DNA of 56,514 nt from Acidobacteriota bacterium. Its GTDB lineage: Bacteria; Acidobacteriota; Vicinamibacteria; Vicinamibacterales; Vicinamibacteraceae. The notes beneath the pieces are model-generated. The model was not told the DNA's origin and did no database searches. It saw only the letters and a list, made by a program, of their open reading frames with translations. This document shows positions 304 through 51,820 of the stretch, in pieces (within the stretch, counting starts at the first letter, position 1; every line of letters begins with the position of its first letter). The translations under genes were made by a program, and so were the position numbers. The stretch spans positions 1-56,514 of the forward strand of contig JBIQIB010000011.1 of the NCBI GenBank assembly GCA_044508265.1, read 5' to 3'.

Positions 304-1141
304 CAGCACCCGCGTAGGAGGGACGCCGTACCGCTTCAACCGTGAGCGCGGCGGCACGCGCCCGATTTCGTTCAGCGACCCGATGACTCTGGCGCTGCTG
401 GCCGGCCACAAGACGCAGACGCGGCGCCTGCGCGGGCTGGGCGGGCTCAACGAGGCGCCTGACGATTGGGCGCTTGACCGCTGGCAGGAGTATCGGGACG
501 GTTCGCTGCGCGCAGTGTTCGATCACGTGGCATCCGGCGAGCCGAACGCGATAGGCATCCGCTGCCCCTACGGCCAACTTGGTGATTTGCTCTACGTGCG
601 CGAGGCGTGGCAGTACGCTGACTGGACCGAGGAGGGCGATCCATTCATCCGCTACCGGGCTGACGGGACGACTCGCCTGCACGACGTGGACATGGTCCCC
701 GAGGAGTGGAGCGACCGCCTCACGAGCATCTGGGCAGAGCTATCGAGCCCGGACAATCTCCGTGCGACGGATGGCCTTGCGGCTGACCGTCGCTGGCGGC
801 CGTCCATCCACATGCCGCGCTGGGCCTCACGCATCGCGCTGGAGATCACGGACGTGCGCGTGGAGCGGCTGCACGCGATTACCGAGGCGGATGCGATAGC
901 GGAGGGCGTCATGGACGGTGGTTGCCTGACGTGCGGCAATAGTAGCCACCCTGCACCCTGCGGATGCAGCGACCCGAGGCCCGACTATCGGGACGCATTC
1001 GTGCGCCTGTGGGACTCCATCAACGGCAAGCGCGAGGGGTGCCGGTGGGCGGATAATCCGTGGCTGTGGTGCCTCACGTTCCGGTGCGACAACTACGTCA
1101 CGCGTGAGGCGCGCGCGTGGGAGGTGGCTCATGGCGCCTAA
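296..1141 (+). CDS. ASCH/PUA-like domain protein (function tentative)
   Basis: ATG 296 overlaps the upstream stop and follows GGAAGAGGTGG. ISFSDPMTLALLAGHKTQTRR resembles the ASCH G-x-K-x-x-E/T-x-R motif. The track ORF starts at 236, but that part overlaps the previous gene. Confidence 0.6.
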   Translation: MTNSTRVGGTPYRFNRERGGTRPISFSDPMTLALLAGHKTQTRRLRGLGGLNEAPDDWALDRWQEYRDGSLRAVFDHVASGEPNAIGIRCPYGQLGDLLYVREAWQYADWTEEGDPFIRYRADGTTRLHDVDMVPEEWSDRLTSIWAELSSPDNLRATDGLAADRRWRPSIHMPRWASRIALEITDVRVERLHAITEADAIAEGVMDGGCLTCGNSSHPAPCGCSDPRPDYRDAFVRLWDSINGKREGCRWADNPWLWCLTFRCDNYVTREARAWEVAHGA

Positions 1142-1550
1142 CGCAGCGCAGGCGTCCGGCCGCGGCACGCCGTACCGATACAACCGGCAGCGCGGCGTGT
1201 GGCAGTTCTGGCCGCGCAACGGCGACGGCTGGCGCGACTCGACGCACGAGCACCGGCACGACCCGACGCGCGGCCCGCTGGACCCCGACGAGCGCGCCTA
1301 CTTCGGCGCGCCGGTCATCATCGGCGACGACGAGCCTGTGCCTGACGAGTACCTAGACGGCCGCTTACTGCAGGCCGTGGACCCGCACGCCGAGCCGACG
1401 CTGGCCGAGGTGGACCGCCTGACGCGTGAGGCGCTGCTGGACGCAATGCCCGACGTGGACCGCGACACGACGCTATACACGCACGAACTCGCGCAACTGC
1501 TGGCCGCGCGCTACGCGCGCGATTTCGCAAACCATCATGGGGAGGTATGA
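1131..1550 (+). CDS. hypothetical protein
   Basis: ATG 1131 lies 4 nt after GGGAGGTGG and overlaps the upstream TAA. Its N-terminal GTPYRYNRQRG is shared with the preceding gene (GTPYRFNRERG). Confidence 0.65.
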   Translation: MAPNAAQASGRGTPYRYNRQRGVWQFWPRNGDGWRDSTHEHRHDPTRGPLDPDERAYFGAPVIIGDDEPVPDEYLDGRLLQAVDPHAEPTLAEVDRLTREALLDAMPDVDRDTTLYTHELAQLLAARYARDFANHHGEV

Positions 1551-1554
1551 CGAC

Positions 1555-2004
1555 ATGGCACGCAATCGTAAGGCAGTTGCGGCGCCGACGAGGGACGAGG
1601 GCTTCAAGCCGGAGCGGGTCGGGACGGGCGAGCGCCGGTGGTACACCGCCACGCTGCGCGTCCTGAACGACCTGCACCTGCCGGCCGCCATGGACCGCGA
1701 CGCGGAATGGGAGGCCATACAGGCGGCGCGTGAGACGATCCCGACCGGGCCGCCGAAGCTGCCGCCTGACGAGCAGGCGCGGGTGGTGCACGAGAAGCGA
1801 AACGACCCGATCCCGTTCGGCTACATCCCGCAGGAAACGTGGGACAAGGCGGTCAGGACATGGCGTCACGAGCGCGACCGCATCCGCGAGTGGAACGGCA
1901 TGGTCGCGCGTGAGGCGGTGCCGTCGTCCGCTCCGCCGCTCATCCCTGACGAGGCGCCGGTGCGCAAGCGTCGTGAGGCAGCGGGCAAGCGAGGTGCGGC
2001 ATGA
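1555..2004 (+). CDS. hypothetical protein
   Basis: ATG 1555 lies 8 nt after GGAGGT (1541-1546). The earlier part of track ORF 1426-2004 overlaps gene 1131-1550 out of frame. Confidence 0.65.
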   Translation: MARNRKAVAAPTRDEGFKPERVGTGERRWYTATLRVLNDLHLPAAMDRDAEWEAIQAARETIPTGPPKLPPDEQARVVHEKRNDPIPFGYIPQETWDKAVRTWRHERDRIREWNGMVAREAVPSSAPPLIPDEAPVRKRREAAGKRGAA

Positions 2005-2336
2005 CGGCCTCACGCAACCCGCTCGACGTACTAGTCGACGACCTGACGGTGATGACGGCCAACGCGGCCGACGAGGTGGCCCGCGCGCAAGGCAGCCTAA
2101 CGAGGGCGGAGTCGGCCTTGGACGCAGCCGAGGCGCGGCACGCCGCCATGCTCGCTGCGCTCGACCGCGCCGTTAGTGCGCGCGAGCAGGCGAGGAACCC
2201 GACGCGTGAGGCGCCTGACGAGTCGCCGGTGGTAGCTGTCGGCAACGAGCCGCACATAGTGGCGCCGCTCGGCGTCAGGCCGGAGCACCTGCGCGACCTC
2301 GCGCTAGGCAAGCGCGGGCGTAGTGCGCACGACTAG
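2001..2336 (+). CDS. hypothetical coiled-coil protein
   Basis: ATGA start/stop overlap with the upstream gene; Ala/Glu/Arg-rich helical sequence. Confidence 0.6.
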   Translation: MTASRNPLDVLVDDLTVMTANAADEVARAQGSLTRAESALDAAEARHAAMLAALDRAVSAREQARNPTREAPDESPVVAVGNEPHIVAPLGVRPEHLRDLALGKRGRSAHD

Positions 2337-2424
2337 GGTGGTGGGGCGGTGAGGAGCAGGACACGGCGCCGGCCGATGTAGTGCCGGCCCGCGACATATG
2401 CCTGACGAAGGACCGGAGGTAACG

Positions 2425-7433: not shown

Positions 7434-8327
7434 ATGCCCGCATCATCGAGAACGAGGAAGCCCGCGAGGAGGAAGACGGCGGCGGCCGAACCGGCACGCC
7501 GGCGCCTGACGATCGAGAACGTGCCTATCGAGCGGCTGGTGCCTGCGGCGTACAACCCGCGCACCATGAGTGACGAGGCGCGCGCGAAGCTGAAGCGCGG
7601 CATCGAGCGTTTCGGCCTCGTGGACCCGATCATCGTCAGGCGATCGGACAACCTCGTCGTAGGCGGCCACCAGCGCCTGCAGGCCGTGAGCGAGCTAGGG
7701 TGGCCCGACGTGCCCGTCGTGTACCTCGACGACCTAGACGACACCGAGGCGGCGGCGCTTAACGTCCTGCTGAACAACCCGGACGCGCAGGGTGCGTGGG
7801 ACATGGCGAAGCTCGCCGACCTGCTCAGCGAGATGGACGGGCACGGCTTCGACGCGACCCTGACGGGGTTCGACACCGCCGGGCTGGAGGACATCCTAAG
7901 CTGGACGCCCGACGCGCTGCCTGACGACGACAAGGCGCTCGCGGAGAACTACAGCCGCAAGATTCAGCCGCCGGTCTATGAGCCGAAGGCCGACAAGGCG
8001 CCTCGTGAGGCAGACCTGTACGACCGCACGAGGGCCGACACGCTACTCGCGGCGATCGAGCGAGCCGAGAAGAAGCACGCGCTGCCTCGTCAGGTTGCCA
8101 CGTTCCTGCGCGCTGCGGCCGAGCGCCACACGGTGTTCCGCTTCGACCGGATCGCGGAGTATTACGCGCATGCGCCGGCCGAGGTGCAGGCGCTCATGGA
8201 GGACTCCGCGCTCGTTATCATCGACTTCGACCGCGCCGTCGAGCTAGGATATGTGAAGCTCACCGAGGCGATGCTTGCCGAGGCCGGCTACGCGAAGGCA
8301 GCCGAGGAGGGGGACGACGGTGCCTGA
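7434..8327 (+). CDS. ParB-like nuclease-domain (ParB/Srx N-terminal) protein
   Basis: IERLVPAAYNPRTMS...GLVDPIIVR...LVVGGHQRLQA matches the ParB N-terminal domain signature, behind a basic N-terminal tail. Confidence 0.8.
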   Translation: MPASSRTRKPARRKTAAAEPARRRLTIENVPIERLVPAAYNPRTMSDEARAKLKRGIERFGLVDPIIVRRSDNLVVGGHQRLQAVSELGWPDVPVVYLDDLDDTEAAALNVLLNNPDAQGAWDMAKLADLLSEMDGHGFDATLTGFDTAGLEDILSWTPDALPDDDKALAENYSRKIQPPVYEPKADKAPREADLYDRTRADTLLAAIERAEKKHALPRQVATFLRAAAERHTVFRFDRIAEYYAHAPAEVQALMEDSALVIIDFDRAVELGYVKLTEAMLAEAGYAKAAEEGDDGA

Positions 8328-9201
8328 CGACAGTTTCTGCGCGTTTATCCTCACGCACGGGCGGCCGGATCGCGTGCACACGTACCGCACGCTGCAAAAG
8401 CACGGCTACACGGGGCGCGTCTACTTCGTCGTCGATGACGAGGACCGGACGCTGCCAGAGTACCAGCGGCGCTTCGGTGCCTCACGCGTGCTGGTGTTCA
8501 GCAAGGCCGAGATGGCCAAGACGTTCGACGAGGGCGACAACACCGGCGACCGGCGCGCGATCGTCTACGCGCGCAACGCCTGCTGGCACTTCGCTCGGCA
8601 GTTAGGCGTTAGGTCGTTCGTGCAACTCGACGATGACTACGGCTCGTTCGGCCATCGCTTCGACGAGGACCACCGCTTCGGCTACTGGAAGTGCCGCAAC
8701 CTCGACAGGCTGTTCGCCCTCGTGGTCGAGTACCTGACCGCGACGCCGTTCCTGTCGATCGCGTTTGCCCAAGGCGGCGACATGCTCGGCGGTGGCGGCA
8801 GCCTGCAGCAGAGCACGATCCGCACGAAGCGCAAGGCCATGAATACATTCGTGTGCCTGACGAGCCGGCCCTTCGAGTTCGTCGGCCGCGTCAACGAGGA
8901 CGTCAACACGTACACGGCAACGCAACGCCGTGGCGGCCCGTTCCTCACGCTGCTGGCCCTGCAGGTGAACCAGAAGCCGACGCAGTCGAACGCCGGCGGC
9001 ATGACGGACCTGTACCGCGACAGCGGCACCTATCTCAAGTCGTTCTACTCGGTCGTCTATGCCCCGTCATGCGTCGTCGTCGCCCCGTTGAAGGATCGCG
9101 ACAGCGGCGCGAGGATCCACCACCGCGTGCGCTGGGAGTGCGCCGCGCCGATGATCGTGCCCGAGCGCTTCCGAAAGGCTAGCGCGATGCCTAACACCTA
9201 A
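8320..9201 (+). CDS. possible GT-A-fold glycosyltransferase-like protein (weak call)
   Basis: GTG 8320 after GAGGAGGGGG, overlapping the upstream TGA by 8 nt. The N-terminal strand-helix AFILTHGRPDRVHTYRTL and the acidic FVQLDDDY (DxD-like) suggest a nucleotide-sugar transferase fold. Confidence 0.4.
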   Translation: MPDDSFCAFILTHGRPDRVHTYRTLQKHGYTGRVYFVVDDEDRTLPEYQRRFGASRVLVFSKAEMAKTFDEGDNTGDRRAIVYARNACWHFARQLGVRSFVQLDDDYGSFGHRFDEDHRFGYWKCRNLDRLFALVVEYLTATPFLSIAFAQGGDMLGGGGSLQQSTIRTKRKAMNTFVCLTSRPFEFVGRVNEDVNTYTATQRRGGPFLTLLALQVNQKPTQSNAGGMTDLYRDSGTYLKSFYSVVYAPSCVVVAPLKDRDSGARIHHRVRWECAAPMIVPERFRKASAMPNT

Positions 9202-9771: not shown

Positions 9772-9797
9772 GTCACCTAACGCCTGACGCCTAACGC

Positions 9798-10766
9798 ATG
9801 ACGTGGAGTGTAGAGGAGGGAGACTGCCGTAAGGTCATGGGCGCAATGGAGGCCGATAGCGTGGACGCGATCGTGACTGACCCGCCCTACGGCCTCGCGT
9901 TCATGGGCAAGGGCTGGGACCACGCCGTGCCCGGTGTCGAGTTCTGGAGCGCCGCCCTTCGCGTGGCGAAGCCGGGCACGTACCTGCTGGCCTTCGGCGG
10001 CACGCGGACCTTCCACCGGCTCGCCGTGGCGATTGAGGACGCCGGCTGGGAGATACACGACTGCCTGACGTGGCTGTACGGTAGCGGGTTCCCCAAGCAC
10101 AAGAGCAAGCTAAAGCCAGCGTGGGAGCCGATTATCCTTGCGCGCAAGCCAGCGAAGCGGGCCACGCTCCTCAACATAGAGCAGTGCCGCATTGAGGCAG
10201 AGCGCCCCACCGGATGGGCCGGAGTACCCACCGGATGGGCCGCCGGCGGCCTTGATTCTCGTGAGCCGGGCGGACGTCCGGTCACCGGCCGCTATCCGGC
10301 CAACGTCGTGCTGGACGAGGATGCTGCTGCGATGCTGGACGCACAGAGCGGCGCGTCGCGGTTCTTCTACTGCGCGAAGGCAAGCCGGGCAGAACGGGAG
10401 GCAGGACTGGAAGGCATGCCGCGCCGCGTGGCTGGCGTAGGCAACGTGGACGAGCAGTCGGGGCGTGATAGCTCCCTGCCGAGCAACCAGTACAGAACGG
10501 ACTCACGTCAGCGCGTGGCGCGAGGCGAAACGCCAACCATTCCGCGCGCCAACCATCATCCCACGGTGAAGCCCATCGCGCTGATGCGCTGGCTCGTGAG
10601 ACTGGTGGCGCCTGAGGGTGGGCTTGTGCTCGACCCGTTCGCCGGCAGCGGTTCTACCGGCTGCGCGGCTGTGCTGGAGGGGCGCCAGTTCATCGGCGCC
10701 GAGCTTGACGCTGACTACGCCGCCATCGCCCGCGCCCGTATCGCGCACTGGGCAAAGCGTGCCTAA
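9798..10766 (+). CDS. DNA methyltransferase, beta-class N6A/N4C (DPPY)
   Basis: Motif IV IVTDPPYG lies near the N-terminus and motif I VLDPFAGSGSTG near the C-terminus. HPTVKP is also present. Confidence 0.9.
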   Translation: MTWSVEEGDCRKVMGAMEADSVDAIVTDPPYGLAFMGKGWDHAVPGVEFWSAALRVAKPGTYLLAFGGTRTFHRLAVAIEDAGWEIHDCLTWLYGSGFPKHKSKLKPAWEPIILARKPAKRATLLNIEQCRIEAERPTGWAGVPTGWAAGGLDSREPGGRPVTGRYPANVVLDEDAAAMLDAQSGASRFFYCAKASRAEREAGLEGMPRRVAGVGNVDEQSGRDSSLPSNQYRTDSRQRVARGETPTIPRANHHPTVKPIALMRWLVRLVAPEGGLVLDPFAGSGSTGCAAVLEGRQFIGAELDADYAAIARARIAHWAKRA

Positions 10767-12264
10767 CGCAGCGCGGAAGCGAACACGGCCGCGTAAGGCA
10801 GCAGCGACGACGACGCCGGCCGCCGCCGCGACGCCTCACGAGCCGCCGGCGCTCGTCGCCACGGCCCTGCAGGAGAAGTTCACGCGCCTCGTGTTCGACG
10901 GGCGCTATCGCTACATCGGCATCGGCGGCGCCATCCGTGGCAGCAAGACGTGGTCAGTCCTCATTGCCCTCGTGTTGCTCATGCGCATCTACCCGCGCTC
11001 ACGGTGGGCGATCGTGCGCGAGGACTGGACGGCCCTCACGCAGAACACCATGCCGTCGATCGAGACGCTGCGCGCCACGTTAGGCGGCTGGCTCGGCCCC
11101 ATCAACCTGCGCACCAAGACCTACCGCGCGCAGAACGGCAGCGAGCTACTGCTGGTGCCCGAGTCCCTGCCCACGGACCCGGACCTGAACGCGTTCAAGG
11201 GCTTCGAGGTCAACGGCTTCGTGCTGGAGGAGGGCAACGAGCTATCGGTCAAGACGTTCCATAAGGCGATCGAGCGCGCCGGGGCGTGGATCATCCAGCC
11301 GACGGCCGACGAGCGCGCGTCAGGCATAACGCCAGCGCAGCCGCCGCCGCGCGTGCTCGTGTCGTTCAACCCGTCGCTAGAGTGGACCGACGAGGTGTTC
11401 CACGAGCCTTACGAGTCGGGCACGCTGCGCGAGCCGTACGCGTTCCTGCCGGCCAAGATTACCGACAACCCGCACCTACCGCCCACCTACCTAGAATCGC
11501 TGGAGGAACTGCGCAACGCGGCGCCTGACGAGTACGAGCGCTTCGTCATGGGCAAGCGCGGCGGCACGCCGGACCCGCGTCAGCTAATCACGATGGACAT
11601 GATCGTTAGGGCGCGCGACGTCACCCATGAGCCGGGGCGCATCCGCATGGGGCTCGACGTCATGCGCGGCGGCAAGGACGAGAACGTCCTAGCGATCATC
11701 GACGGCAACATGCTCGTTGACCTTATCCCGATCGTGGTGCCTGACGACAGCACGACCGACCTAGCGATCGCGGCCATGGAGCACGCCCACGAGTGGGAAG
11801 CCCTGCCTGACGACGTGCGCGTGGACACGATCGGCGTCGGCGGCGGCGCCTACGACACGATGAAGGACCGGCGGTTCGAGCCGCGCGCGTTCGTGGCCGG
11901 CGCCTCGCCGATCGTCAGGCCGAAGGATCACCCGTTCGCACGTTGGGAGTACCAGAACCTGCGCGCGCAGGCGTGGTGGGAGTTCCGCGAAAAGCTGCGG
12001 CGCGGCATGTTCGGCCTCGACCCTGAACTGGCGACGCGGCGGCCTGACGAGTGGAAGAAGTTCGTCAAGGACATTACCGCCTTCCGGTACGACTTCGTGC
12101 GCGAGCGCAAGATTGACGTTTCGAGCCGTGACGAGGTGCAGGCGTCGATAGGCAGGTCACCGGACTACGGTACGGCGGCCGTCATGGCGGCGATCGACCT
12201 GCCGCCGCGTGTGGCGAAAGGCCCGGTCGGGCGATATGCTAGTACGAGTCGCCTGACGATCTAG
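10759..12264 (+). CDS. terL: terminase large subunit
   Basis: GTG 10759 overlaps the methylase TAA within GTGCCTAACG. It has a Walker-A-like GIGGAIRGSKTW and typical size and position upstream of the portal. The track ORF 10618 start lies inside the methylase gene. Confidence 0.85.
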   Translation: MPNAARKRTRPRKAAATTTPAAAATPHEPPALVATALQEKFTRLVFDGRYRYIGIGGAIRGSKTWSVLIALVLLMRIYPRSRWAIVREDWTALTQNTMPSIETLRATLGGWLGPINLRTKTYRAQNGSELLLVPESLPTDPDLNAFKGFEVNGFVLEEGNELSVKTFHKAIERAGAWIIQPTADERASGITPAQPPPRVLVSFNPSLEWTDEVFHEPYESGTLREPYAFLPAKITDNPHLPPTYLESLEELRNAAPDEYERFVMGKRGGTPDPRQLITMDMIVRARDVTHEPGRIRMGLDVMRGGKDENVLAIIDGNMLVDLIPIVVPDDSTTDLAIAAMEHAHEWEALPDDVRVDTIGVGGGAYDTMKDRRFEPRAFVAGASPIVRPKDHPFARWEYQNLRAQAWWEFREKLRRGMFGLDPELATRRPDEWKKFVKDITAFRYDFVRERKIDVSSRDEVQASIGRSPDYGTAAVMAAIDLPPRVAKGPVGRYASTSRLTI

Positions 12265-19213: not shown

Positions 19214-19267
19214 CGGGCGGTCACCGACCCTTCACCTAACGACGACGATCACGGAGGCTCACGCATC

Positions 19268-39007: not shown

Positions 39008-39064
39008 GACAGTTGAAGTACCGCGCAGTTGACAGCCTGAACCACCCCACCGGAGGAACCGACC

Positions 39065-39747: not shown

Positions 39748-39782
39748 GCGCTGACCCTAACGACCTAACGAGGAACTGAGCT

Positions 39783-40190: not shown

Positions 40191-40205
40191 CGAGGAGAAC
40201 CGACC

Positions 40206-40436: not shown

Positions 40437-40468
40437 CCATCACCTAACGACCTAACGAGGAACCGACC

Positions 40469-41065: not shown

Positions 41066-41086
41066 CGTTCTGAGCCTGACGACGAC

Positions 41087-41109
41087 GGCCCGCCCATCCG
41101 GGGCGGGCC
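41087..41109 (+). promoter_or_regulatory. conserved intergenic stem-loop GGCCCGCCC-ATCCG-GGGCGGGCC
   Basis: Perfect 9-bp stem, followed by ACCCTAACGACCTAACGAGGAACCGACCATG. Confidence 0.7.
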
Positions 41110-41137
41110 ACCCTAACGACCTAACGAGGAACCGACC

Positions 41138-41413
41138 ATGCCTAAGCAGACCCTGACGCAAGCCCTCCACCTAGCGCGCACCGGGAAGGATCGCCAGTTG
41201 CGCCGCGCCGCGCGCCGCCTGCACGGCCTGCCCGAGGGCGGGTGGGCCGAGACTGAGCAGGCCATGCGCGAGATCATGGGCCTGTTGCCGTTCTCGTTCC
41301 AGCGCGACTACACGCTCGGCGAGTGGGTCGCGGCGACGCACTACGTGGTGCCTGACAAGAGCCGCCCCGGTCGCAGTGCCGGCCGGTGGGCGACGCGCAT
41401 CATGGACGCCTGA
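41138..41413 (+). CDS. hypothetical protein
   Basis: Hairpin plus CCTAACGACCTAACGAGGAACCGACCATG leader. Confidence 0.65.
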   Translation: MPKQTLTQALHLARTGKDRQLRRAARRLHGLPEGGWAETEQAMREIMGLLPFSFQRDYTLGEWVAATHYVVPDKSRPGRSAGRWATRIMDA

Positions 41414-41430
41414 CGAGGAGATACCTGACG

Positions 41431-41817
41431 ATGAGACTGCCCAACCCTGCTGCACGCGACCCGCGCGACGCCCGCCTGCACGGCGTCGTCTACCTGCTGC
41501 ACTTCGCCACGCCGTACGAGCACGCGCGGCACTACATGGGGTTCACGGCCGACCTAGCCGAGCGCCTGCGCGAGCATCGCAGGGGCTACGGCTCGCGCCT
41601 CGTCGGCGTCGTCGCGGCGGCCGGTATCGAGTTCAACGTCGTGCGCGCATGGCACGGCACCCGGTCGGACGAGCGGCGCCTGAAAGGCCGTGGCCTCGGC
41701 GACCTGTGCCCCATCTGCCGCGCCTCGTCAGGCTGTCACCCGCGCAACCCGCGCTGGACGGCCGGCGAGCTAACGCCTGACGAGATACGCCTCGCACTCA
41801 TCCACGCCGCAGCCTGA
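41431..41817 (+). CDS. GIY-YIG-like nuclease-superfamily protein (tentative)
   Basis: GVVYLLHF...HYMGFTADLAERLREHRRG...ERRLK...CPIC resembles the GIY-YIG core followed by a Zn finger. ATG 41431. Confidence 0.5.
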   Translation: MRLPNPAARDPRDARLHGVVYLLHFATPYEHARHYMGFTADLAERLREHRRGYGSRLVGVVAAAGIEFNVVRAWHGTRSDERRLKGRGLGDLCPICRASSGCHPRNPRWTAGELTPDEIRLALIHAAA

Positions 41818-41860
41818 CGCCTGACGACCCTATCACCCTTGCCCGAGGGATCATCCTACC

Positions 41861-42214
41861 ATGACCAGCACAACGACGACACCCGCCGCCCCGTCCCTGC
41901 CGCCCGCCGTGGTGCGCGCCCTATGCCTGTACGTGCCCGCCGGGCGCCTCGTGTACGTCGTCGTCAGGTGGCGCGACGGTGACCGCGTGGCGCTGGCCGA
42001 GGGCACGACAGCAGCCGGGCGCGTGCGTATCCGGCCGTGGATCGCAGCGCGGCGCGCGTACGGCCCGGCTCAGCACGTCGCGCCCGCGCGCGTCCTGCGC
42101 CTCGCCACGCCTGACGACAGGAGGAAGCGGCGCGTCGAGCGTCCGCCGGTGCCGGCCGGTGTCGCCGAACTCATGCGCGGCCTAGCGCCGCGTCCCCGCA
42201 GCCGGCGCGCCTGA
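41861..42214 (+). CDS. hypothetical protein
   Basis: GAGGGA RBS; stop in GCCTGACG. Confidence 0.6.
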   Translation: MTSTTTTPAAPSLPPAVVRALCLYVPAGRLVYVVVRWRDGDRVALAEGTTAAGRVRIRPWIAARRAYGPAQHVAPARVLRLATPDDRRKRRVERPPVPAGVAELMRGLAPRPRSRRA

Positions 42215-42269
42215 CGCGTGCCGGTGCATCATCACCACCATCACCATCACCTAACGAGAGGAACTGACC

Positions 42270-42527
42270 ATGCGGAACCTGACGATCGCTGAGTGCGTCG
42301 CCGACCTGATGCTGGACTTCCCGTGCGCCCCGGCTGAACTGCCTGACGCGCACCCGCACCTGACGTCGCTCGTGGCGTCGCAGCTAGGCGAGACGTATGG
42401 CACCGAGCGCGGGGCGGACAACCTGACGCGCTACGTGTTCACCGACGGCAGCGCGATCGTGGTCGATCGCGTGAACGACACGTGGGACGTCGAGGGCGAG
42501 ACGCCGTTCTCGTGGAAGGGCAAGTGA
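42270..42527 (+). CDS. hypothetical protein
   Basis: CCTAACGAGAGGAACTGACCATG leader. Confidence 0.65.
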   Translation: MRNLTIAECVADLMLDFPCAPAELPDAHPHLTSLVASQLGETYGTERGADNLTRYVFTDGSAIVVDRVNDTWDVEGETPFSWKGK

Positions 42528-42757
42528 GCGCGCCTCGTGAGGCGCCTGACGCGGCAACGGCGGCAGCAACGTGCGAGTTCGAGGCGCTGGTCGTCGTCGG
42601 CCCGGCCTGCACCGAGCCCCCGGCGGGTACGTTCCGGTGGGTGCTGTTCGGCGAGCCCGGCCCGAGCTACCGGCTGTGCGCCCGCCACCTCGACCTGACC
42701 GTGAGCCGGGCGCAGGAGCAGGGTTGGCCCCACGAGGCCACGCGCACGCCCGCCTGA
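42524..42757 (+). CDS. hypothetical small protein
   Basis: GTGA start/stop overlap at 42524. Confidence 0.5.
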   Translation: MSAPREAPDAATAAATCEFEALVVVGPACTEPPAGTFRWVLFGEPGPSYRLCARHLDLTVSRAQEQGWPHEATRTPA

Positions 42758-42808
42758 ACGCCCCGCGCCCGCGCACAATCGGCGCGTGCGCCACGATCGG
42801 CCCCGGAG

Positions 42809-42840
42809 CTAGGGTGACCTATGCCTCCGGGGCCGATCGT
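42809..42840 (+). repeat. conserved upstream box, copy B
   Basis: CTAGGGTGACCTATGCCTCCGGGGCCGATCGT. Confidence 0.7.
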
Positions 42841-42914
42841 CCGTCAGGGGCGATCCTAGGCCGTTCGCCCTAGGTGCCCCCTCGCGCGCGTGGGCGCGAC
42901 CTTCTACCGCCCGC

Positions 42915-42943
42915 TTGACTGCCCCGGCAGGTTGAGTTAACGT
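42915..42943 (+). promoter_or_regulatory. sigma-70-like early promoter P-B (-35 TTGACT, 17-bp spacer, -10 TAACGT)
   Basis: Shares CTTGAC.GCCC.GGCAGGTTG.GTTAACGTGACAGTTGAAGTACCGC..AGTTGACA.CCTGA with P-A. Confidence 0.5.
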
Positions 42944-42977
42944 GACAGTTGAAGTACCGCAGTTGACAACCTGACAG

Positions 42978-42998
42978 GCCGGCCCGCCCGGGGCCGGC
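42978..42998 (+). promoter_or_regulatory. GC-rich stem-loop in the leader of the P-B operon
   Basis: GCCGGCCC / GGGCCGGC arms. Confidence 0.5.
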
Positions 42999-43021
42999 GA
43001 CCCGAACCGGAGGAACCGACC

Positions 43022-43234
43022 ATGACCACCACGCCGATCACCGCCGAGATGAAACTGGAGTGGATCACCGCACGCATCGCCGAGGGTCGCACGGTCTACC
43101 TGACGACCGCGACGCGCGTCACGAAGATCGGCCGTCGGCATCTGGCGCAGGTGCGCGTCCGCGCCGGCCATCTGGAGGTTCAGTACGGCCGGCGCTGGCT
43201 GAACGCCGACTGGGTGAAGATCACCGCTAGCTGA
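43022..43234 (+). CDS. hypothetical small protein
   Basis: GGAGGAACCGACCATG leader downstream of the second promoter-like block. Confidence 0.65.
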   Translation: MTTTPITAEMKLEWITARIAEGRTVYLTTATRVTKIGRRHLAQVRVRAGHLEVQYGRRWLNADWVKITAS

Positions 43235-43299
43235 CGTCTCACGCCTGACGAGCGTCGTGCCCGCGGCGCTCACCACCACCCGATCCGGAGGACACAACC

Positions 43300-44433
43300 A
43301 TGCCCCGCACGACGACCCGCAAGACGACGACCCGAAAGACGACCGCCCGCAAGACGACGACGCGCCGCCGCGCGTCCGCGTCAGGCACCAAGGCCACGGC
43401 CCCGCGCCGCTCGAATGCCGACATCTACGCCGACGTAACGCGCCGCGTCATCGAGCGCATGCAGGCGGGCGTCATGCCGTGGCAGCGCCCGTGGGACGCG
43501 ACCGGCGCCCCGGCCGTCACGTTAGGCATGCCGGCCAACGCCGCGACGCGCCGCGCCTACAGCGGCGTCAACGTGCTGGTGCTGATGAGCGAGCAGATGG
43601 CGAACGGCTACCGCACCGCCGGCTGGGTGACGTTCCGTCAGGCGATCGCCGAGGGCGCCGTGGTGCGGAAGGGCGAGAAGGGCACGGCGATCGTGTTCAT
43701 GCGCAAGGTGTCGGTGCGCGATCGTGAGGCGGGCGAGTCGTCAGGCGGCGAGGGCGAGGACGGCCGCCGCGACATCTGGATGGCGCGCCAGTTCGTCGTG
43801 TTCAACGTCGACCAGTTGGCCGACCTGCCTGATTCGCCCGGCGCGGTGGACCGCCTCGTCAGGCGCATGGGCGGCCCGCTCGCGTCAGGCAGCGCCGACG
43901 CCGACGAGGGCTTCGACGCGATCGCCGCGTGCGAGGCGATGGTGCGCTCGTCAGGCGCGACGATCCGCCACGGTGGCGACCGCGCGTTCTACCGCCCGGC
44001 GTCGGACAGCATCACCATGCCGCCGCGCAAGGCATTCGCCACGCGCGAGGGCTACTACGGCACGCTGTTCCACGAACTCGCGCACTGGACCGGCGCGCCG
44101 CACCGCCTCGACCGCCCGCTGCTCAACATGTTCGGCTCGGAGCGCTACGCGCTGGAGGAACTCGTCGCGGAGATGGCCTCGGCGTTCGTGTCCGCCACGT
44201 TCGGCATCGAGCACGTGTCACAGTCGGCCGCCTACGTCGACCACTGGCTCGCCTGCCTCACGCGCCACGACGCTGAGCACCGCGAACTGGTGACGGCCGA
44301 GGACTTGACAGGCCCGCGCGCACTCGTCAGGTGCGCGACGATGGCGTCGGCCGCCGCCAACTACCTGCTCGGCCTAGCCGGCACGGCCGGCACCGCAGGC
44401 GACGACGAGGGCGAGGACGCCGCCGCAGCCTGA
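43300..44433 (+). CDS. ardC: ArdC-like antirestriction protein (ssDNA-binding N-domain plus zincin metalloprotease)
   Basis: MPWQRPW...YSGVNVLVL...WVTFRQA...VRKGEKGT (ArdC-N/DUF1738 pattern). The C-terminus has YYGTLFHELAHWTG (HExxH). Confidence 0.85.
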   Translation: MPRTTTRKTTTRKTTARKTTTRRRASASGTKATAPRRSNADIYADVTRRVIERMQAGVMPWQRPWDATGAPAVTLGMPANAATRRAYSGVNVLVLMSEQMANGYRTAGWVTFRQAIAEGAVVRKGEKGTAIVFMRKVSVRDREAGESSGGEGEDGRRDIWMARQFVVFNVDQLADLPDSPGAVDRLVRRMGGPLASGSADADEGFDAIAACEAMVRSSGATIRHGGDRAFYRPASDSITMPPRKAFATREGYYGTLFHELAHWTGAPHRLDRPLLNMFGSERYALEELVAEMASAFVSATFGIEHVSQSAAYVDHWLACLTRHDAEHRELVTAEDLTGPRALVRCATMASAAANYLLGLAGTAGTAGDDEGEDAAAA

Positions 44434-44454
44434 CGAGCACCGCACGACGACGAC

Positions 44455-44477
44455 GGGCCGCCCACCCGGGGCGGCCC
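44455..44477 (+). promoter_or_regulatory. conserved intergenic stem-loop GGGCCGCCC-ACCCG-GGGCGGCCC
   Basis: Perfect 9-bp stem with compensatory changes relative to the 41087 copy. Confidence 0.7.
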
Positions 44478-44505
44478 ACCCACCCGACCTAACGAGGACC
44501 CGACC

Positions 44506-45114
44506 ATGACCCGACGCACTCACCTGACGCAGACGCCCGCGCCCGCGACCCGCCCGGTGCCCGCCACGCCTGCCACGCCGACGCCGACGCCCCGCGTCCG
44601 TCTGGAGTTCGACACGTACAACTGCAGCCGCTGCGGCGGCACCGGCTTCTACTCGCGCGGTCGCTGCTTCCTGTGTGGCGGCGCGAAGGTGCGCCTGACG
44701 CCGGCCGGTCGCCGGGCGTACGCGAAGTGGCGGGCGTGGCGCGACGAGCACCTGACGATGACGCCCGAGGAGGCTGCGTCGTCAGGCACGCCGGTGATCG
44801 TGCCGCAGGAGTTCGCCGGCCCGCAGGACGGCGGGACTTACATCAGGTTCAGGCGCCCGCGCCGCGTGCTGGCCGTTCGCCGCCCCGGCCCTGACGCGCC
44901 GCCGACGCAGATGGTCGAGGTGGACATCGACCTGCGGCTGAAGTATTCGCCGAGCCCGTGGCTGCGCTACGACGCCGAGCGCGGCGTGCTGACCATCAGC
45001 GTCATGCCCGATCACCGTTTCTATCGTCAGGCAACCGGCGCCGAGCTTCGCGCCGCGTTCCCGACGCTTGGCAAGGGCGTCCGGCTCGTCGAGCTACCCG
45101 AGCCCGCAGCCTGA
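44506..45114 (+). CDS. zinc-ribbon-containing hypothetical protein
   Basis: CSRCGGTGFYSRGRCFLCGG; hairpin plus CCTAACGAGGA leader. Confidence 0.65.
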   Translation: MTRRTHLTQTPAPATRPVPATPATPTPTPRVRLEFDTYNCSRCGGTGFYSRGRCFLCGGAKVRLTPAGRRAYAKWRAWRDEHLTMTPEEAASSGTPVIVPQEFAGPQDGGTYIRFRRPRRVLAVRRPGPDAPPTQMVEVDIDLRLKYSPSPWLRYDAERGVLTISVMPDHRFYRQATGAELRAAFPTLGKGVRLVELPEPAA

Positions 45115-45126
45115 CGATCACCCGAC

Positions 45127-45149
45127 GGCCCGTCCACCCGGGGCGGGCC
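45127..45149 (+). promoter_or_regulatory. conserved intergenic stem-loop GGCCCGTCC-ACCCG-GGGCGGGCC
   Basis: 9-bp stem with one G-T(U) wobble, followed by ACCCTAACGACCTAACGAGGA. Confidence 0.65.
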
Positions 45150-45177
45150 ACCCTAACGACCTAACGAGGACACCACC

Positions 45178-45696
45178 ATGCGCAATCCTGCCGCCACGAA
45201 CTTTAACGTGCTTTCGCAGTCGCGCGCGGACGAGTACCGCGCCGGCGGAAGCAACGAACAGGGGAACCGCTTCGAGCGGGCGACGGCCAGCGGTCGCGCG
45301 CGCTGCCGCCAGTGCGCGCAGAAGATTGCCAAGGGCGAGCCGGCGCTGGTCGGCTACCACGACTTCAACGGGCACGGTAGCTACACGGCCGTTAGGTGCT
45401 GGCTGCATCTGGAGTGCCCGCCGCTGCCGCCTAACGCGTGGGCACCGTCGATCAGCCTGACGATCACGGACCGTCAGGCGGAAGTGCTGCAGGACTGCGC
45501 GCGCGAGCCCCTGTCGGTCTTTCTGATCTTCGGCCGTGGACTGGCTCGCTCGTACGGTCAGGCTTCCGAACTCGTGCTCAACCTGCGCGCGCGCGGCTTC
45601 ATCGAGCCCGTGCGCTCGACGGACAGCAAGCGCGGCGGCTATGCCACGACTGAGCTAGGCAAGAAGGCACTCGCGGCGTACTACGAGGACGCCTGA
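45178..45696 (+). CDS. putative DNA-binding protein: PARP-type Zn-finger-like N-terminus plus winged-helix-like C-terminus (tentative)
   Basis: ERATASGRARCRQCAQKIAKGEPAL...H..C resembles zf-PARP. The C-terminal LTITDRQAEVL...LVLNLRARGFIEP resembles wHTH. Confidence 0.5.
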   Translation: MRNPAATNFNVLSQSRADEYRAGGSNEQGNRFERATASGRARCRQCAQKIAKGEPALVGYHDFNGHGSYTAVRCWLHLECPPLPPNAWAPSISLTITDRQAEVLQDCAREPLSVFLIFGRGLARSYGQASELVLNLRARGFIEPVRSTDSKRGGYATTELGKKALAAYYEDA

Positions 45697-45710
45697 CGAC
45701 TCGCCCTACC

Positions 45711-45733
45711 GGCCTGCCCATCCGGGGCGGGCC
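45711..45733 (+). promoter_or_regulatory. conserved intergenic stem-loop GGCCTGCCC-ATCCG-GGGCGGGCC
   Basis: 9-bp stem with one G-T(U) wobble, followed by ACCCTAACGACCTAACGAGGA. Confidence 0.65.
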
Positions 45734-45762
45734 ACCCTAACGACCTAACGAGGACACCTACC

Positions 45763-46071
45763 ATGGCCCGTAAGACGAGGAAGGACGCCCGCACCGCGCA
45801 GCACTATTTCGCCAGCACGTACGTCGCGTGGGCGACCGCCGACACGCGCGAGGCTGCAATCAAGGACGCGGTGCGCCGCACGCGTGAGGCAGTGCGCGGG
45901 CGCGGTTTCATCCCGTGGCCGCTGGAAATCCTGTCGTGCGCCGTGCCGCTGCCGCAGTCGTCAGGCTACGAAATCGACAATTACCTGCCGGTGCGCGAGA
46001 CCGGACGGCACGACGTGCAGAAGCATGTGCAGGCATCGCAGCGCGCCACGCCGGCGCGCGTGGACGCCTGA
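45763..46071 (+). CDS. hypothetical protein
   Basis: Hairpin plus CCTAACGACCTAACGAGGA leader. Confidence 0.65.
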   Translation: MARKTRKDARTAQHYFASTYVAWATADTREAAIKDAVRRTREAVRGRGFIPWPLEILSCAVPLPQSSGYEIDNYLPVRETGRHDVQKHVQASQRATPARVDA

Positions 46072-46080
46072 CGACTAACC

Positions 46081-46103
46081 GGCGCGCCCATCCGGGGCGC
46101 GCC
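46081..46103 (+). promoter_or_regulatory. conserved intergenic stem-loop GGCGCGCCC-ATCCG-GGGCGCGCC
   Basis: Perfect 9-bp stem. The C-to-G change in the left arm is compensated in the right arm. Confidence 0.7.
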
Positions 46104-46132
46104 AACCCCAACGCCTGACGAGGAGCCCGCCC

Positions 46133-46420
46133 ATGTCCCGACGCCGTTCAGATACTCCCGCAGCCTGCCGCGCCCGCGCGCGCCGCGCCGCTCGCAAGGC
46201 CGACGAGTGCCGCCAGCGCGCAGCCCAGTGCCGCCAGTACGCGGAACGCGGCTCGCCTGAATCGCGCGCCGGCTACCTAACGCTGGCGCAGAACTACGAC
46301 ATCTTCGCGGAGTCGTTCGACTCGACCGCGGAGTGGGAGCGCAAGAACGCCGCGCGCGCCCGGCGCCGCGAGGCAGCCCGCCGGAAGCACGACAGCCGCG
46401 CCGTGGTGTCCACCGCCTGA
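46133..46420 (+). CDS. hypothetical basic helical protein
   Basis: Hairpin plus CCTGACGAGGAGCCCGCCCATG leader. Confidence 0.6.
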   Translation: MSRRRSDTPAACRARARRAARKADECRQRAAQCRQYAERGSPESRAGYLTLAQNYDIFAESFDSTAEWERKNAARARRREAARRKHDSRAVVSTA

Positions 46421-46458
46421 CGATCACCACCACCTAACGACCTAACGAGGAACCGACC

Positions 46459-46988: not shown

Positions 46989-47369
46989 ATGACCATGACG
47001 ACGACGACCACCGCGCCCGCACCTGACGGCCGCCACGTGCCGCGCCTGACGCGCGCGCAGCACCGTGTGCTGCTGCTCATGGCGCAGGGTGCCCTGCTCT
47101 ATCGCGGCACCGCCTACCCGGTCGGACGGCGCGACGTTGCGATGCCGGCCGTGACGATCCACGCGCTCGTCAGGCGCGGGCTCATGCGCGAGTGGACCGA
47201 GGACGAGTACGCCGCCTCGCCGCACGTGAGGCAGGCGCTGTACCTGCGCTACGTGCTGACGGACACGGGGCGCGAGGTGAGGTTCGCGCTACTGGAGCGC
47301 ATGCGCGCGAACGCCGTGCGCGAGACGGCGCGCGACGACGTAACGCCTGACGAGGGGAGGCAGTCGTGA
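46989..47369 (+). CDS. winged-helix-like hypothetical protein
   Basis: ATG 46989 after GGAGGACGTGACC. LTRAQHRVLLLMAQGALLY...IHALVRRGLM. The upstream part of the track ORF is non-coding-like. Confidence 0.6.
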   Translation: MTMTTTTTAPAPDGRHVPRLTRAQHRVLLLMAQGALLYRGTAYPVGRRDVAMPAVTIHALVRRGLMREWTEDEYAASPHVRQALYLRYVLTDTGREVRFALLERMRANAVRETARDDVTPDEGRQS

Positions 47370-47833
47370 GGCTCGCGTTTCAGAACAACCTGTATACGAG
47401 GCAGCGCCTCGCGCTGTTCGTGATCCTAGGCGACACGGTGAGCGAGGACGCCTACATGCGCGGCCTGCCCGAGGCCGTCGACGAGGGCCTGCGGCGCGCG
47501 AAGGAGGTGGCCGGACAGCGCGCGTCGTTCGCTGTGCGCTACGACTACGCGCGCAACGCGATCGACCCGTCGCATAAGATCGGCTCGACGCGCGCGGTGG
47601 TGCGCGTGCCTGACGACACGTTCGTGCGCGTCGTGCAGACGCTGACGGGCCAGACGGCCGCCGAGCTAGGCGCTGAGCTAGGCCGCACGGAGCGCAGCGT
47701 CAGGCGCTGGCTGCAGCGCCGGCGCGTGCCGCGCGCGATCGCCGTGCGCCTCACCGGATGGTGCGCCGCGTTAGGCGTGCCGGTAGTGCCCGAGAATGCC
47801 TTTCACTGTGACCTATCACCCGAGGAGGACTAG
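47366..47833 (+). CDS. HTH DNA-binding protein (putative regulator)
   Basis: GTGA overlap start. HTH-like TAAELGAELGRTERSVRRWLQRRRVP. Confidence 0.6.
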   Translation: MRLAFQNNLYTRQRLALFVILGDTVSEDAYMRGLPEAVDEGLRRAKEVAGQRASFAVRYDYARNAIDPSHKIGSTRAVVRVPDDTFVRVVQTLTGQTAAELGAELGRTERSVRRWLQRRRVPRAIAVRLTGWCAALGVPVVPENAFHCDLSPEED

Positions 47834-50280: not shown

Positions 50281-50383
50281 CTGCGTGCCGACACGGTGCC
50301 CGCCGTGCCTGCCGAGTAGGAGAACCTACCATGCACCCGAACGGTAGCCGATCCGACAGGCGTGCGCAATGCCCCGGCGCGCG

Positions 50384-50412
50384 TTGTGATTACCTGACAC
50401 CGACGCTAGATT
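50384..50412 (+). promoter_or_regulatory. sigma-70-like promoter (-35 TTGTGA, 17-bp spacer, -10 TAGATT)
   Basis: Lies in a locally lower-GC 234-bp gap upstream of the Rad52-like gene. Confidence 0.45.
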
Positions 50413-50463
50413 GGAGGTGTTCCTGATGGACCGATTCACCCTGACGAAATAGGAGACTGAGCC

Positions 50464-51432
50464 ATGCACGAAACGGACACGGATACGGGAGCAGTCACGC
50501 GGCTGCCTCACGCCGCGCCGCCGCACAAGCTGTGGACCGACCTGTCGGCGCCGATCCCGTCGGTGCTCATCAAGTGGCGACAGGACGGCAAGGTCACGCA
50601 ACGCGACGGGCGCTTCATTGCGCGCTTCGTCGCATACATCGAGGCGAACACTGTCAGGCAGCGCCTCGACGAGCACGCGCCCGGCGCGTGGAGCCTGTTA
50701 GTCACGCCGCTGCCTAACGCGGCTGACGAGGACGGCGTGGTGCTGTTCGCGTTTCGCGCTCGCCTGACGATTCACGGCGTCACGCGCGAGGACGTCGGCA
50801 CCGGGCACGACTACAAGAGCGCGTCGACGGACGCGTTCAAGCGCGTTGCCGTGCGCTTCGGGATCGGCCACGAACTGTACGACTACGAACAGAACTGGGT
50901 CGAGATGGACGGCGACGGTCGTTATGCGCGGCCGGTCGAGGATCCGGCGCGCGCCTACGCTCGCAAGATGGCGCGACTGAAAGACAAGCGCGTCGAGGAG
51001 GCGAAGCGCGCCGAGCAGCGCATGGACATGGCGAATAAGGCGCGTCGTCAGGCAGGTATGCCGGACTACGCCGACGACGACGACAACCGCGAGACGGGCG
51101 GGCCGCCTGACGAGGGGCCGCAGCCACTCACGAGGCCGTCGGTGGGCGACGACTACGGCGAGGCCGAGGCGCCTGAGCCGGCGCGTCGTCAGGCGCGCAG
51201 CACGCGCTCGCGCGTGCAGGGGTCGTCGTCAGGCAGCAGCACTGGTAGCGATGAGCCGGCCGACGACGTGCCGCTGTGCCCCAATTGCGGCGGCACCATG
51301 TGGGACAACCGCCTGACGAAGCGCAACCCCAAGGCGCCTGACTTCAAGTGCCGCGACCGGAACTGCACCGGCGTCGTCTGGCCGCCCCGCCCGGGCGACG
51401 GCATGGGGCCGGAGGACGAGTTGCCGTTCTAG
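50464..51432 (+). CDS. Rad52/Sak-type single-strand annealing protein with C-terminal zinc ribbon
   Basis: FVAYIEANTVRQRLDE...G...DYKSASTDAFKRVAVRFGIGHELYD matches the Rad52/22 pattern. CPNCGG...CRDRNC lies at the C-terminus. Confidence 0.8.
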   Translation: MHETDTDTGAVTRLPHAAPPHKLWTDLSAPIPSVLIKWRQDGKVTQRDGRFIARFVAYIEANTVRQRLDEHAPGAWSLLVTPLPNAADEDGVVLFAFRARLTIHGVTREDVGTGHDYKSASTDAFKRVAVRFGIGHELYDYEQNWVEMDGDGRYARPVEDPARAYARKMARLKDKRVEEAKRAEQRMDMANKARRQAGMPDYADDDDNRETGGPPDEGPQPLTRPSVGDDYGEAEAPEPARRQARSTRSRVQGSSSGSSTGSDEPADDVPLCPNCGGTMWDNRLTKRNPKAPDFKCRDRNCTGVVWPPRPGDGMGPEDELPF

Positions 51433-51505
51433 TGTGGCGCACGCGCGGGCCGGGGCCTATCGTGAGGCACCGGCCACGCGCGCCTAACGTACACGCATAC
51501 CTGAC

Positions 51506-51820
51506 ATGATGATGACGACCAGAAAGAAGCGGGCTTATCGCTACACGCCGCCGCCGCCGCCTGAGGTGATGGCCGAGCGCGACAGGCAGATCGTACTGGA
51601 CTACCGCGACCGTGGCCTGTCGCTCTACGCCGTCGGCGACCTGCACGGCCTGTCGGCCGAGCGCGTTAGGCGTATCCTTCAGCGTGAGGGCGTCGAGGTA
51701 CGACGCCCCGGCCGACGGCCGCGCTACTGGCGCGAACGCTACACGGCCGCGCGCGAGGCGCCAGCCGCTCTGCGAGTGCCGCCGGTCAGCAGTAGCGCCG
51801 GCGGCGATGCTCACGCCTGA
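51506..51820 (+). CDS. small HTH protein (sigma-70 region-4-like)
   Basis: RDRQIVLDYRDRGLSLYAVGDLHGLSAERVRRILQREGV. Confidence 0.55.
   Translation: MMMTTRKKRAYRYTPPPPPEVMAERDRQIVLDYRDRGLSLYAVGDLHGLSAERVRRILQREGVEVRRPGRRPRYWRERYTAAREAPAALRVPPVSSSAGGDAHA

Follow-up and report, generated by a model that had tools for sequence, protein, structure and literature searches.

Why should so many genes of one genome end, and several begin, inside copies of a single short sequence? This question is raised by a 56,514-nucleotide stretch of DNA (the window; 56.5 kb, contig JBIQIB010000011.1 of assembly GCA_044508265.1, filed under an Acidobacteriota bacterium), which is a siphovirus-like phage genome with a GC content of 69.4%. 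Our own gene caller, based on codon usage, gave 76 genes, every one on the + strand, and public gene calls for the same contig mostly concur with ours where both overlap. The initial annotation had reported that stop codons lie in GCC-TGA-CG or CC-TAA-CG, that starts read ATG or GTG followed by CCTNACG, and that many proteins end in Ala as a result, and it had read this as a termination-reinitiation grammar layered on a genome-wide motif. We found the pattern to be present, and we put the probability at roughly three in four that it is a by-product of a genome-wide, DNA-level pressure for one word rather than a termination-reinitiation device.

The word in the genome and at stop codons

The word, GCCTGACG and its close variants, has the consensus Y-G-CCT-V-ACG-M and occurs in 514 copies on both strands of positions 1 to 56,514 (317 on + and 197 on −), so that the pattern at gene boundaries is indeed overlaid on a genome-wide motif. 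This amounts to about one copy per 110 bases counting either strand (mean spacing 109 bp, ~9 per kb), and the copies cover 6.4% of the genome. CCTGACG was found 209 times on + and 102 times on −, with ~6.5 expected on each strand. Enrichment ranged from 33-fold for the 7-mer up to 272-fold for the 9-mer; GCCTGACGA was enriched 272-fold on + and 135-fold on −. At the central V, G is more frequent than A and A more frequent than C, and a CTT context of the motif T is rare. The flanks are the same on both strands, with G at −1 in 75-88% of copies, A or C dominant at +1, and G depleted at −2. Because copies on the non-coding strand share these flank preferences, they are a property of the DNA word and not of a reading frame or of termination. 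Both orientations are enriched with the same flanks, which shows that the word is recognised on, or produced in, double-stranded DNA.

The copies are spaced more evenly than random placement would give. The coefficient of variation of the spacing was 0.835 vs 0.993±0.045, and none of 2000 simulations reached so low a value; every 500-bp bin contained the motif, the variance/mean ratio was 0.59, and the number of copies per gene was under-dispersed (chi-square 48 on 75 degrees of freedom). We detected no helical or other periodicity of the copies and no preference in the relative orientation of neighbouring copies, and motif orientation does not switch along the genome. Copies inside genes make up 86% of the total, in both orientations, and 415 of the 514 lie wholly inside genes.

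Such density has consequences for codons and peptides. The two most enriched dipeptides were PD (146 found, 73 expected) and LT (174 found, 92 expected), and VR, SG and RQ were also among the top; all five are what the word encodes, forward or reverse, in the frames open to it. The motif holds 123 of the 209 CCT codons, 47 of 90 TCA codons and 54 of 143 AGG codons. The TTA codons, 36 in a 69%-GC genome without tRNA genes, fall within reverse motif copies (xCG-TTA-GGx) in 28 cases. We also counted synonymous opportunities, meaning peptides that can be encoded with the motif while the protein is unchanged, and determined the share that actually uses the motif:

P-D-[GAVDE]: 86% encoded with the motif
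P-N-[GAVDE]: 88% encoded with the motif
x-L-T: 66% encoded with the motif
R-Q-[GAVDE]: 71% encoded with the motif
[SPTA]-S-G: 74% encoded with the motif
[SPTA]-L-G (via TTA): 54% encoded with the motif
x-V-R: 31% encoded with the motif

With 31-88% of the synonymous opportunities used, the genome is near motif saturation. We conclude that the pressure for dense copies overrides codon bias and alters protein sequence.

The stop codons were found to lie within the word at the following positions (last base of the stop; the forward motif runs from 4 nt before to 2 nt after this base):

1141, 9201, 10766, 19213 (+): TAA stops
3659, 6973, 7368, 8327, 14230, 14486, 15014, 17618 (+): TGA stops
21946, 22432, 31454, 35631, 39478, 40190, 41065, 41413, 41817, 42214 (+): TGA stops
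44433, 45114, 45696, 46071, 46420, 46911, 51820 (+): TGA stops
32876, 38266, 47369: stops in the reverse form CG-TGA-GG
50229: stop in the reverse form CGT-TAG-G

Thus 29 of the 76 stops (38%; 25 TGA and 4 TAA) fall within CCT[GA]ACG. The list drawn up earlier proved exact for all 25 TGA, 4 TAA and 4 reverse-form coordinates; only its denominator of about 78 becomes 76. The final codon of the genes with forward-motif stops is GCC in 24 cases and ACC in 5, and GCC-TGA accounts for the C-terminal Ala. Overall, 30 of 76 proteins (39%) end in Ala, compared with 13.9% Ala across the proteome.

Whether the stops are special depends on the comparison. Relative to random sequence their enrichment is far above chance. 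Relative to the motif's own density, the check that the initial annotation had named as able to refute its reading, they hold about as many copies as expected. Within CCTGACG lie 27.6% of all + strand TGA triplets, and the shares of T[GA]A triplets in the motif were as follows:

Stops: 29 of 66 in the motif, 44%
Intergenic triplets: 49 of 107 in the motif, 46% (compared with stops, p=0.88)
Out-of-frame coding triplets: 197 of 750 in the motif, 26% (p=0.004 vs stops)

Excluding the early region (39-47 kb), 17 of 49 stops and 29 of 68 intergenic triplets were in the motif (p=0.45). We conclude that stops behave as unconstrained DNA. The same follows from a one-parameter model in which the odds enrichment at purely intergenic 7-mer sites is applied to the four bases flanking a stop. 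With a pooled factor of 62 it predicted 32 motif stops vs 29 observed, and with per-variant factors and real NCC codon frequencies it predicted 22. For the reverse forms the per-variant model gave 6.9 CG-TGA-GG stops vs 3 observed and 0.44 CGT-TAG-G stops vs 1 observed.

One of the TAA stops stands in the loop of a predicted hairpin:

19201..19225 (+): 11-bp hairpin directly 3' of the major capsid gene, with the motif TAA stop in the loop (fold z = −5.6)

Further hairpins lie directly 3' of structural genes at 16637-16676, 17614-17650 and 18116-18130, some with a + and a − motif copy as arms.

Starts, junctions and the early region

The motif directly follows the start codon, in the form RTG-CCTVACG, in 7 of 76 genes (4149, 8320, 10759, 12299, 14223, 21683 and 51841). 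Two alternative ATGs, at 2398 and 47845, share this form, and the proposed M-P-D/N/H starts were thus found at all seven predicted starts and both alternatives. The second residue is Pro in 20 of 76 proteins. At three junctions a single motif copy, RTGCCTRA, supplies both the stop of one gene and the start of the next, as had been described; the 8-nt overlaps are GTGCCTGA (8320-8327), GTGCCTAA (10759-10766) and ATGCCTGA (14223-14230). Reverse copies form overlaps as well. The forward and reverse cases are:

8320..8329 (+): GTGCCTGACG, start of the TAGT gene at 8320 (public calls give the same start) and stop of the ParB-like gene at 8325-8327
10759..10768 (+): GTGCCTAACG, start of terL and stop of the methyltransferase gene
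14223..14232 (+): ATGCCTGACG, start of an 87-aa gene and stop of the portal gene
38262..38268 (−): reverse copy CGTGAGG in a GTGA overlap, start 38263, stop 38264-38266
47365..47371 (−): reverse copy CGTGAGG in a GTGA overlap, start 47366, stop 47367-47369

The remark that the motif often abuts the Shine-Dalgarno (SD) sequence also held, with 15 occurrences of the fusion CCTRACGAGGA, and in 24 genes a + copy begins 15-24 nt 5' of the start codon.

Translational coupling is expected where a stop overlaps or lies near the next start. We sorted the junctions by distance and by the motif at the stop:

Overlapping junctions (16): forward motif 4, reverse 2, none 10 (mostly ATGA or GTGA)
Junctions with a gap of 0-20 nt (18): forward motif 9, reverse 1, none 8
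Junctions with a gap >20 nt (41): forward motif 16, reverse 1, none 24

Distances to the following start did not differ between motif stops and other stops and were no shorter after the motif (p=0.44). Among the 29 forward-motif stops, just 4 overlap the start that follows and 16 are more than 20 nt from it, so that as a group they do not sit where coupling would be expected. A reinitiation device should favour tight junctions and one strand; the motif does neither, which argues against such a device and leaves the proposed termination-reinitiation grammar without support.

Motif stops are concentrated in the early region, where they make up 12 of 17 stops compared with 17 of 59 elsewhere (p=0.004). 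Repeated intergenic units of 50-80 nt hold these stops, and each unit follows the same order: the stop in GCCTGACG, a GC hairpin of 9 bp that lacks a T run, ACC, CCTAACGACCTAACG, GAGGA, ACCGACC and ATG. The likeness extends into the first codons of the downstream genes. We located the cassette and a 19-mer within the region as follows:

41060..41140 (+): cassette reference copy (repeat families D1-D3 and fold)
44428-44508, 45100-45180, 45684-45764, 46078-46140 (+): further cassette copies
39756, 40443, 41112, 45152, 45736, 46433 (+; span 39756..46451): the 19-mer CCTAACGACCTAACGAGGA, six times without a mismatch, in each case 8-9 nt upstream of a start codon

Shuffled sequences gave an expectation of 0 copies of CCTAACGACCTAACGAGGA vs the six found. 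The 19-mer had no match in IMG/VR and a single one among GTDB representatives, in an Anaerolineae metagenome-assembled genome (MAG), which is consistent with chance. The duplicated cassette accounts for 12 of the 29 motif stops and for most fusions of motif and SD. Since its copies are paralogous, the 29 stops do not count as independent events. No T-run terminators were found in the early region.

Separately, the two longest intergenic gaps, just upstream of the two early gene blocks, share a 47-nt repeat (38978-39024 and 42914-42960; 94% identity) that contains TTGAC-like boxes. These repeats are probably early promoters.

Relatives, neighbouring genes and candidate readers

A nucleotide search of a phage collection with the window returned no match. 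The closest TerL relative, P0002, is 57% identical. In the loci of further TerL relatives (L121, 53%; L122, 44%; L281, 53%; JGI loci, <=42%) the motif was at background and no other word was hyperabundant. A 56.5-kb contig with a major capsid relative (L282, 52% identity) likewise carried neither the motif nor another hyperabundant word, and 33 TAGT-relative loci in IMG/VR had no hyperabundant word. We also scanned IMG/VR for paired GCCTGACG(A); among the matches listed, the motif-richest loci were the antisense of Gly/Ser-rich repeat genes. Three unrelated low-GC viral contigs there (L216, L270 and L111) carry GCCTGACGA arrays antisense to such genes and are a source of false positives. A literature search on the motif sequence gave primer lists only, with no description of such a phage.

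The only relative found with the motif is L271, a 3.7-kb fragment from run SRR20950923 whose amidase is 77% identical and which holds 22 + and 20 − copies (11/kb). We aligned it to window positions 35105-38661 at 71% nucleotide identity and found 16 motif sites in common, 14 in the window only and 18 in L271 only. Motif 7-mers were kept in 55% of cases vs 17.5% for other 7-mers (p=6e-6). Just 3' of the window's stop at 35631, CCTAACG in the window corresponds to CGTCAGG in L271, the flipped orientation. L271 thus keeps the motif density of the window while positions turn over.

Comparison with related phages and with the ends of homologous proteins had both been proposed as checks, and neither favoured a conserved boundary function. 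In L271 none of 5 stops and none of 4 complete gene starts lies in the motif; the chance of 0 of 5 at 44% occupancy is 0.055. Orthologues in motif-free phages end in residues other than Ala, in alignments that end before the C-termini of the window proteins, and the terminal Ala is therefore lineage-specific.

Several genes of the window bear on what might read or write the word. The clearest departure from even coverage is a single gene:

9798..10766 (+): beta-class N6-adenine methyltransferase gene (DPPY), between terS and terL; the only motif-depleted gene

It contains 1 motif copy vs 8.8 expected (P=0.0015), which is a background density, and has the lowest GC content at third codon positions among its neighbours. 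Three tandem copies (9785-9807) border it on one side and GTGCCTAACG at 10759 on the other. Because relatives encode the homologue of the terS product directly upstream of terL, the methyltransferase gene is apparently a recent insertion that is motif-poor so far, and its depletion shows that enrichment accrues over time in resident DNA. We consider the methyltransferase an unlikely reader of the word, as its gene alone is motif-depleted and seems to have arrived recently.

Upstream of terS and terL lies a pair of genes that we regard as a candidate DNA-modification module:

7434-8327 (+): ParB_N-domain gene (ParB_N, 43.5 bits)
8320-9201 (+): TAGT-family glycosyltransferase gene (118.7 bits), overlapping the ParB_N gene by 8 nt

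Such a pair also adjoins the terminase genes in E. coli lambdoid phages and in halovirus HHTV-2 (L283, L284), with no dioxygenase annotated nearby, and it is present in Lactobacillus, Vibrio and Nocardia phages. TAGT homologues overlap a ParB-like gene in Salmonella and Lactobacillus phages too. According to a paper of 2026 (PMC13229309), phage thymine dioxygenases, which belong to 5mYOX-ParB-glycosyltransferase pathways of thymine hypermodification, act after replication and in a sequence-dependent manner, and one subclass requires a ParB-like activator; the ParB-dependent 5mYOX176 prefers NTG and then NTA. Genes for glycosyltransferases, ParB proteins, terminases and N6/N4 methyltransferases usually lie near those of the dioxygenases. 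The window resembles this pathway in having a ParB-like gene, a TAGT gene and an N6/N4 methyltransferase gene in a terminase neighbourhood, and the motif T, found in CTG more than CTA and in CTA more than CTC, resembles the NTG over NTA preference. It differs in that the putative activator and glycosyltransferase stand beside the terminase genes without a detectable TET/JBP dioxygenase, and in that the 33 TAGT loci are without a hyperabundant word. No TET/JBP domain was detected in 20 proteins of unknown function with permissive Pfam searches or in the precomputed Pfam matches of the other genes, searches that a very divergent enzyme could escape. The link of the ParB-TAGT pair to the word is suggestive, a lead rather than a result.

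Other genes were recognised as follows:

10759-12264 (+): terL
18158-19213 (+): major capsid gene
23439-28313 (+): tape-measure gene
35924-36664 (+): amidase gene
43300-44433 (+): ArdC-like gene

Gp157-like, Rad52-like and DnaC-like loader genes were also recognised in the window, as were genes for HTH proteins (47366-47833 and 51506-51820) and for a zf-PARP-like protein (45178-45696), and no Rfam families were found. ArdC resembles Roseomonas and Methylobacterium plasmid proteins at ~43% identity; in a 41-kb stretch of a Roseomonas plasmid the motif was at background, and Roseomonas is not an established host. The window was also identified with contig JBIQJU010000011.1 of assembly GCA_044507255.1, and had thus been binned into what a data paper lists as a 70%-GC Acidobacteriota MAG from a polyethylene terephthalate (PET) enrichment microcosm (PMC12159941). 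The terS product (9214-9771) has an N-terminal tail of ~60 residues that is Lys/Ala/Pro-rich and histone H1-like, with a weak HC2 match in Pfam. A 788-aa open reading frame (4607-6973) contains an inner tandem repeat of 72 nt (24 aa) in ~4.5 copies at 5950-6276 and gave no match to any family or structure.

The window also lacks certain short sites. CCWGG occurs 0 times vs ~250 expected, and CTCGAG, ACCGGT and AGGCCT are likewise absent. For CCWGG the motif-bearing L271 has 0 vs 15 expected and the motif-free L122 has 2 vs 54 expected. We rejected a tie between the motif and CCWGG avoidance, because L122 avoids CCWGG yet is without the motif; the deficit looks like restriction-site avoidance unconnected to the motif.

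Competing explanations, known words and meaning

How could a pressure on DNA place the word so regularly at gene boundaries? Under such pressure the word would settle at the sites of lowest cost, and gene boundaries would be among the cheapest. A TGA or TAA stop would supply three of the seven core bases, leaving only the last residue and two non-coding bases to fit, and the last residue would be GCC, or Ala, since the word prefers G at −1. A start codon would give the preferred TG 5' flank, with residues 2 and 3 weakly constrained. A reverse copy could likewise contain CG-TGA-GG and GTGA overlaps, and in the early region the duplicated cassette would multiply the boundary pattern.

Several points weigh against this account. 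In the stricter per-variant model, 25 TGA stops were observed vs 17.9 predicted (p=0.03). The motif follows 7 of 76 starts vs 2.5% of internal NTG codons (p=0.003), and vs 8 of 209 (3.8%) intergenic TG sites, where the difference is not significant (p=0.13); this start excess is small and all start codons are predicted. Early intergenic copies run 20 on + to 1 on −, in a fixed register before the SD, and may have a cis function of their own. The comparison with a motif-bearing relative comes from one 3.7-kb fragment. Finally, the data fit selection and a conversion or mutational drive alike. Our working guess for the reader is a factor specific to this lineage that binds or modifies DNA and marks or protects the genome as a whole; a signal read by the host, Chi-like or of another kind, or a conversion drive may instead stand behind the word.

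The reading first proposed, in which a + copy in the mRNA acts as a termination-reinitiation signal with the stop in GCC-UGA-CG, a restart at a coupled AUG/GUG-CCU-NAC-G and help from the fused SD, seems to us highly improbable. It can draw on the three RTGCCTRA overlaps, the forward motif stops at 9 of 18 junctions with 0-20 nt gaps, the 15 CCTRACGAGGA fusions and the mild TGA excess over the stricter model. However, stops equal intergenic T[GA]A triplets in motif share, gaps are not shortened and 16 of 29 motif stops are distant from the next start, overlapping junctions mostly have no motif (10 of 16) or a reverse one (2 of 16), 86% of copies are intragenic in both orientations, and the pattern is not retained in L271. 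A narrower proposal is a tentative one that deserves some weight: + intergenic copies before the SD, most clearly the tandem CCTAACGACCTAACGAGGAACCGACC-ATG, may also serve as an initiation or operator element, bound by protein or acting in the mRNA, like start-associated sequences or stoperators. The six exact 19-mers and their near-copies are set in a fixed register, their motif beginning at −18 to −20, the early intergenic orientation of 20:1 differs from that of coding copies (p=0.0003), and these copies lie outside hairpins in predicted mRNA folds. Yet the repeat unit takes in non-motif sequence and the first codons, which marks the copies as paralogues and not as independent occurrences. 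Elsewhere in the genome the intergenic orientation (35:15) is no different from that of coding copies (237:178; p=0.09), no binding protein was identified, and the 19-mer is missing from IMG/VR. Combining this second layer with a mark is distinctly unlikely in our view: the word would be the target of a phage-encoded, post-replicative, sequence-specific modification (of T via the ParB-glycosyltransferase pair and an undetected oxidase, or of A via an adenine-modifying enzyme), maximised as a self-protective coat, with + copies at stops and before the SD co-opted as functional cis signals for gene-by-gene expression.

Two further proposals concern how copies spread. A molecular drive, for example through motif-biased mismatch repair or gene conversion or through a site-specific nickase with templated repair, would also fill boundaries as a by-product. 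Synonymous near-saturation even through the very rare TTA, TCA, AGG and CCT codons, the turnover of sites between relatives, and the newly arrived methyltransferase gene that is not yet filled are all consistent with it, and we hold it doubtful rather than far-fetched: no enzyme emerged as a candidate, no such word is present in the relatives by TerL, major capsid protein or TAGT, and motif sites are kept three times better than other 7-mers, though drive and selection both predict that. It is improbable that the boundary copies are microhomology linkers for module exchange, between which genes are inserted by phage Rad52-type annealing. The methyltransferase gene, motif-poor within and bordered by the three tandem copies and GTGCCTAACG, fits this picture, and Rad52-like and Gp157-like genes are present; but this is a single example, its flanking copies may belong to the old terS-terL spacer, and most copies are intragenic. 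Taken together, we favour the by-product of a genome-wide word pressure as the explanation of the stop, start and Ala pattern.

Known genomic words provide a frame for this pressure. Uptake signal sequences (USS) of Pasteurellaceae and DNA uptake sequences (DUS) of Neisseriaceae are words of bacterial chromosomes, present at ~1 per kb and driven by biased DNA uptake. The word described here is likewise short and asymmetric, hyperabundant both ways, placed in tolerant frames and protein regions, and skews peptide content; like USS and DUS it often lies just after genes, including as inverted hairpin pairs, here after 16629, 17618 and 18108. Unlike them it is a phage word at 9 per kb to which no uptake process applies. 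HIP1 (GCGATCGC) of cyanobacteria is a palindromic chromosomal 8-mer found every few hundred bases in genes and spacers, of unresolved function and with a hypothetical link to methylation. It resembles the present word in being iterated through genes and spacers, whereas the present word is non-palindromic and several times denser. In the features that we tested, the word behaves as USS, DUS and HIP1 do, with tens-fold and even over-representation, a consensus shared by both orientations, and a shaping of codons and peptides.

The likeness to boundary elements is more partial. Stoperators of cluster A mycobacteriophages and start-associated sequences of cluster K are asymmetric 13-bp sites, ~10-35 per genome and essentially intergenic, which lie at gene boundaries in the orientation of transcription and often touch a stop, a start or an SD. 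The early-region tandem CCTAACG-SD element is similar, and a subset of copies (six 19-mers and ~15 fusions, with the motif from −18 to −20) keeps a fixed register upstream of the start with an SD. The word as a whole is unlike them, being neither confined to intergenic DNA nor, except in the early region, strongly oriented with transcription: both orientations are enriched, and most of the 514 copies are intragenic. Chi is an over-represented, orientation-biased 5-8-mer that shields linear DNA from RecBCD or AddAB at about one per several kb. The present word is also over-represented and orientation-biased, but its density is ~50 times higher and its orientation does not switch along the genome.

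The regularity at gene ends, with 38% of stops in one heptamer and 39% of proteins ending in Ala, is thus explained quantitatively by DNA-level pressure as gauged in other parts of this genome, and no translational mechanism is needed. This cautions against inferring a grammar from motifs at gene boundaries. The unusual object is the hyperabundant word itself, to which this phage gives 6.4% of its bases, and for which it accepts TTA, TCA, AGG and CCT codons and rewritten protein termini and dipeptide content. If the reader were found, whether a binding protein, a modification enzyme or a host nuclease, the phage would offer a compact system in which to set a genome-wide signal against coding constraints.

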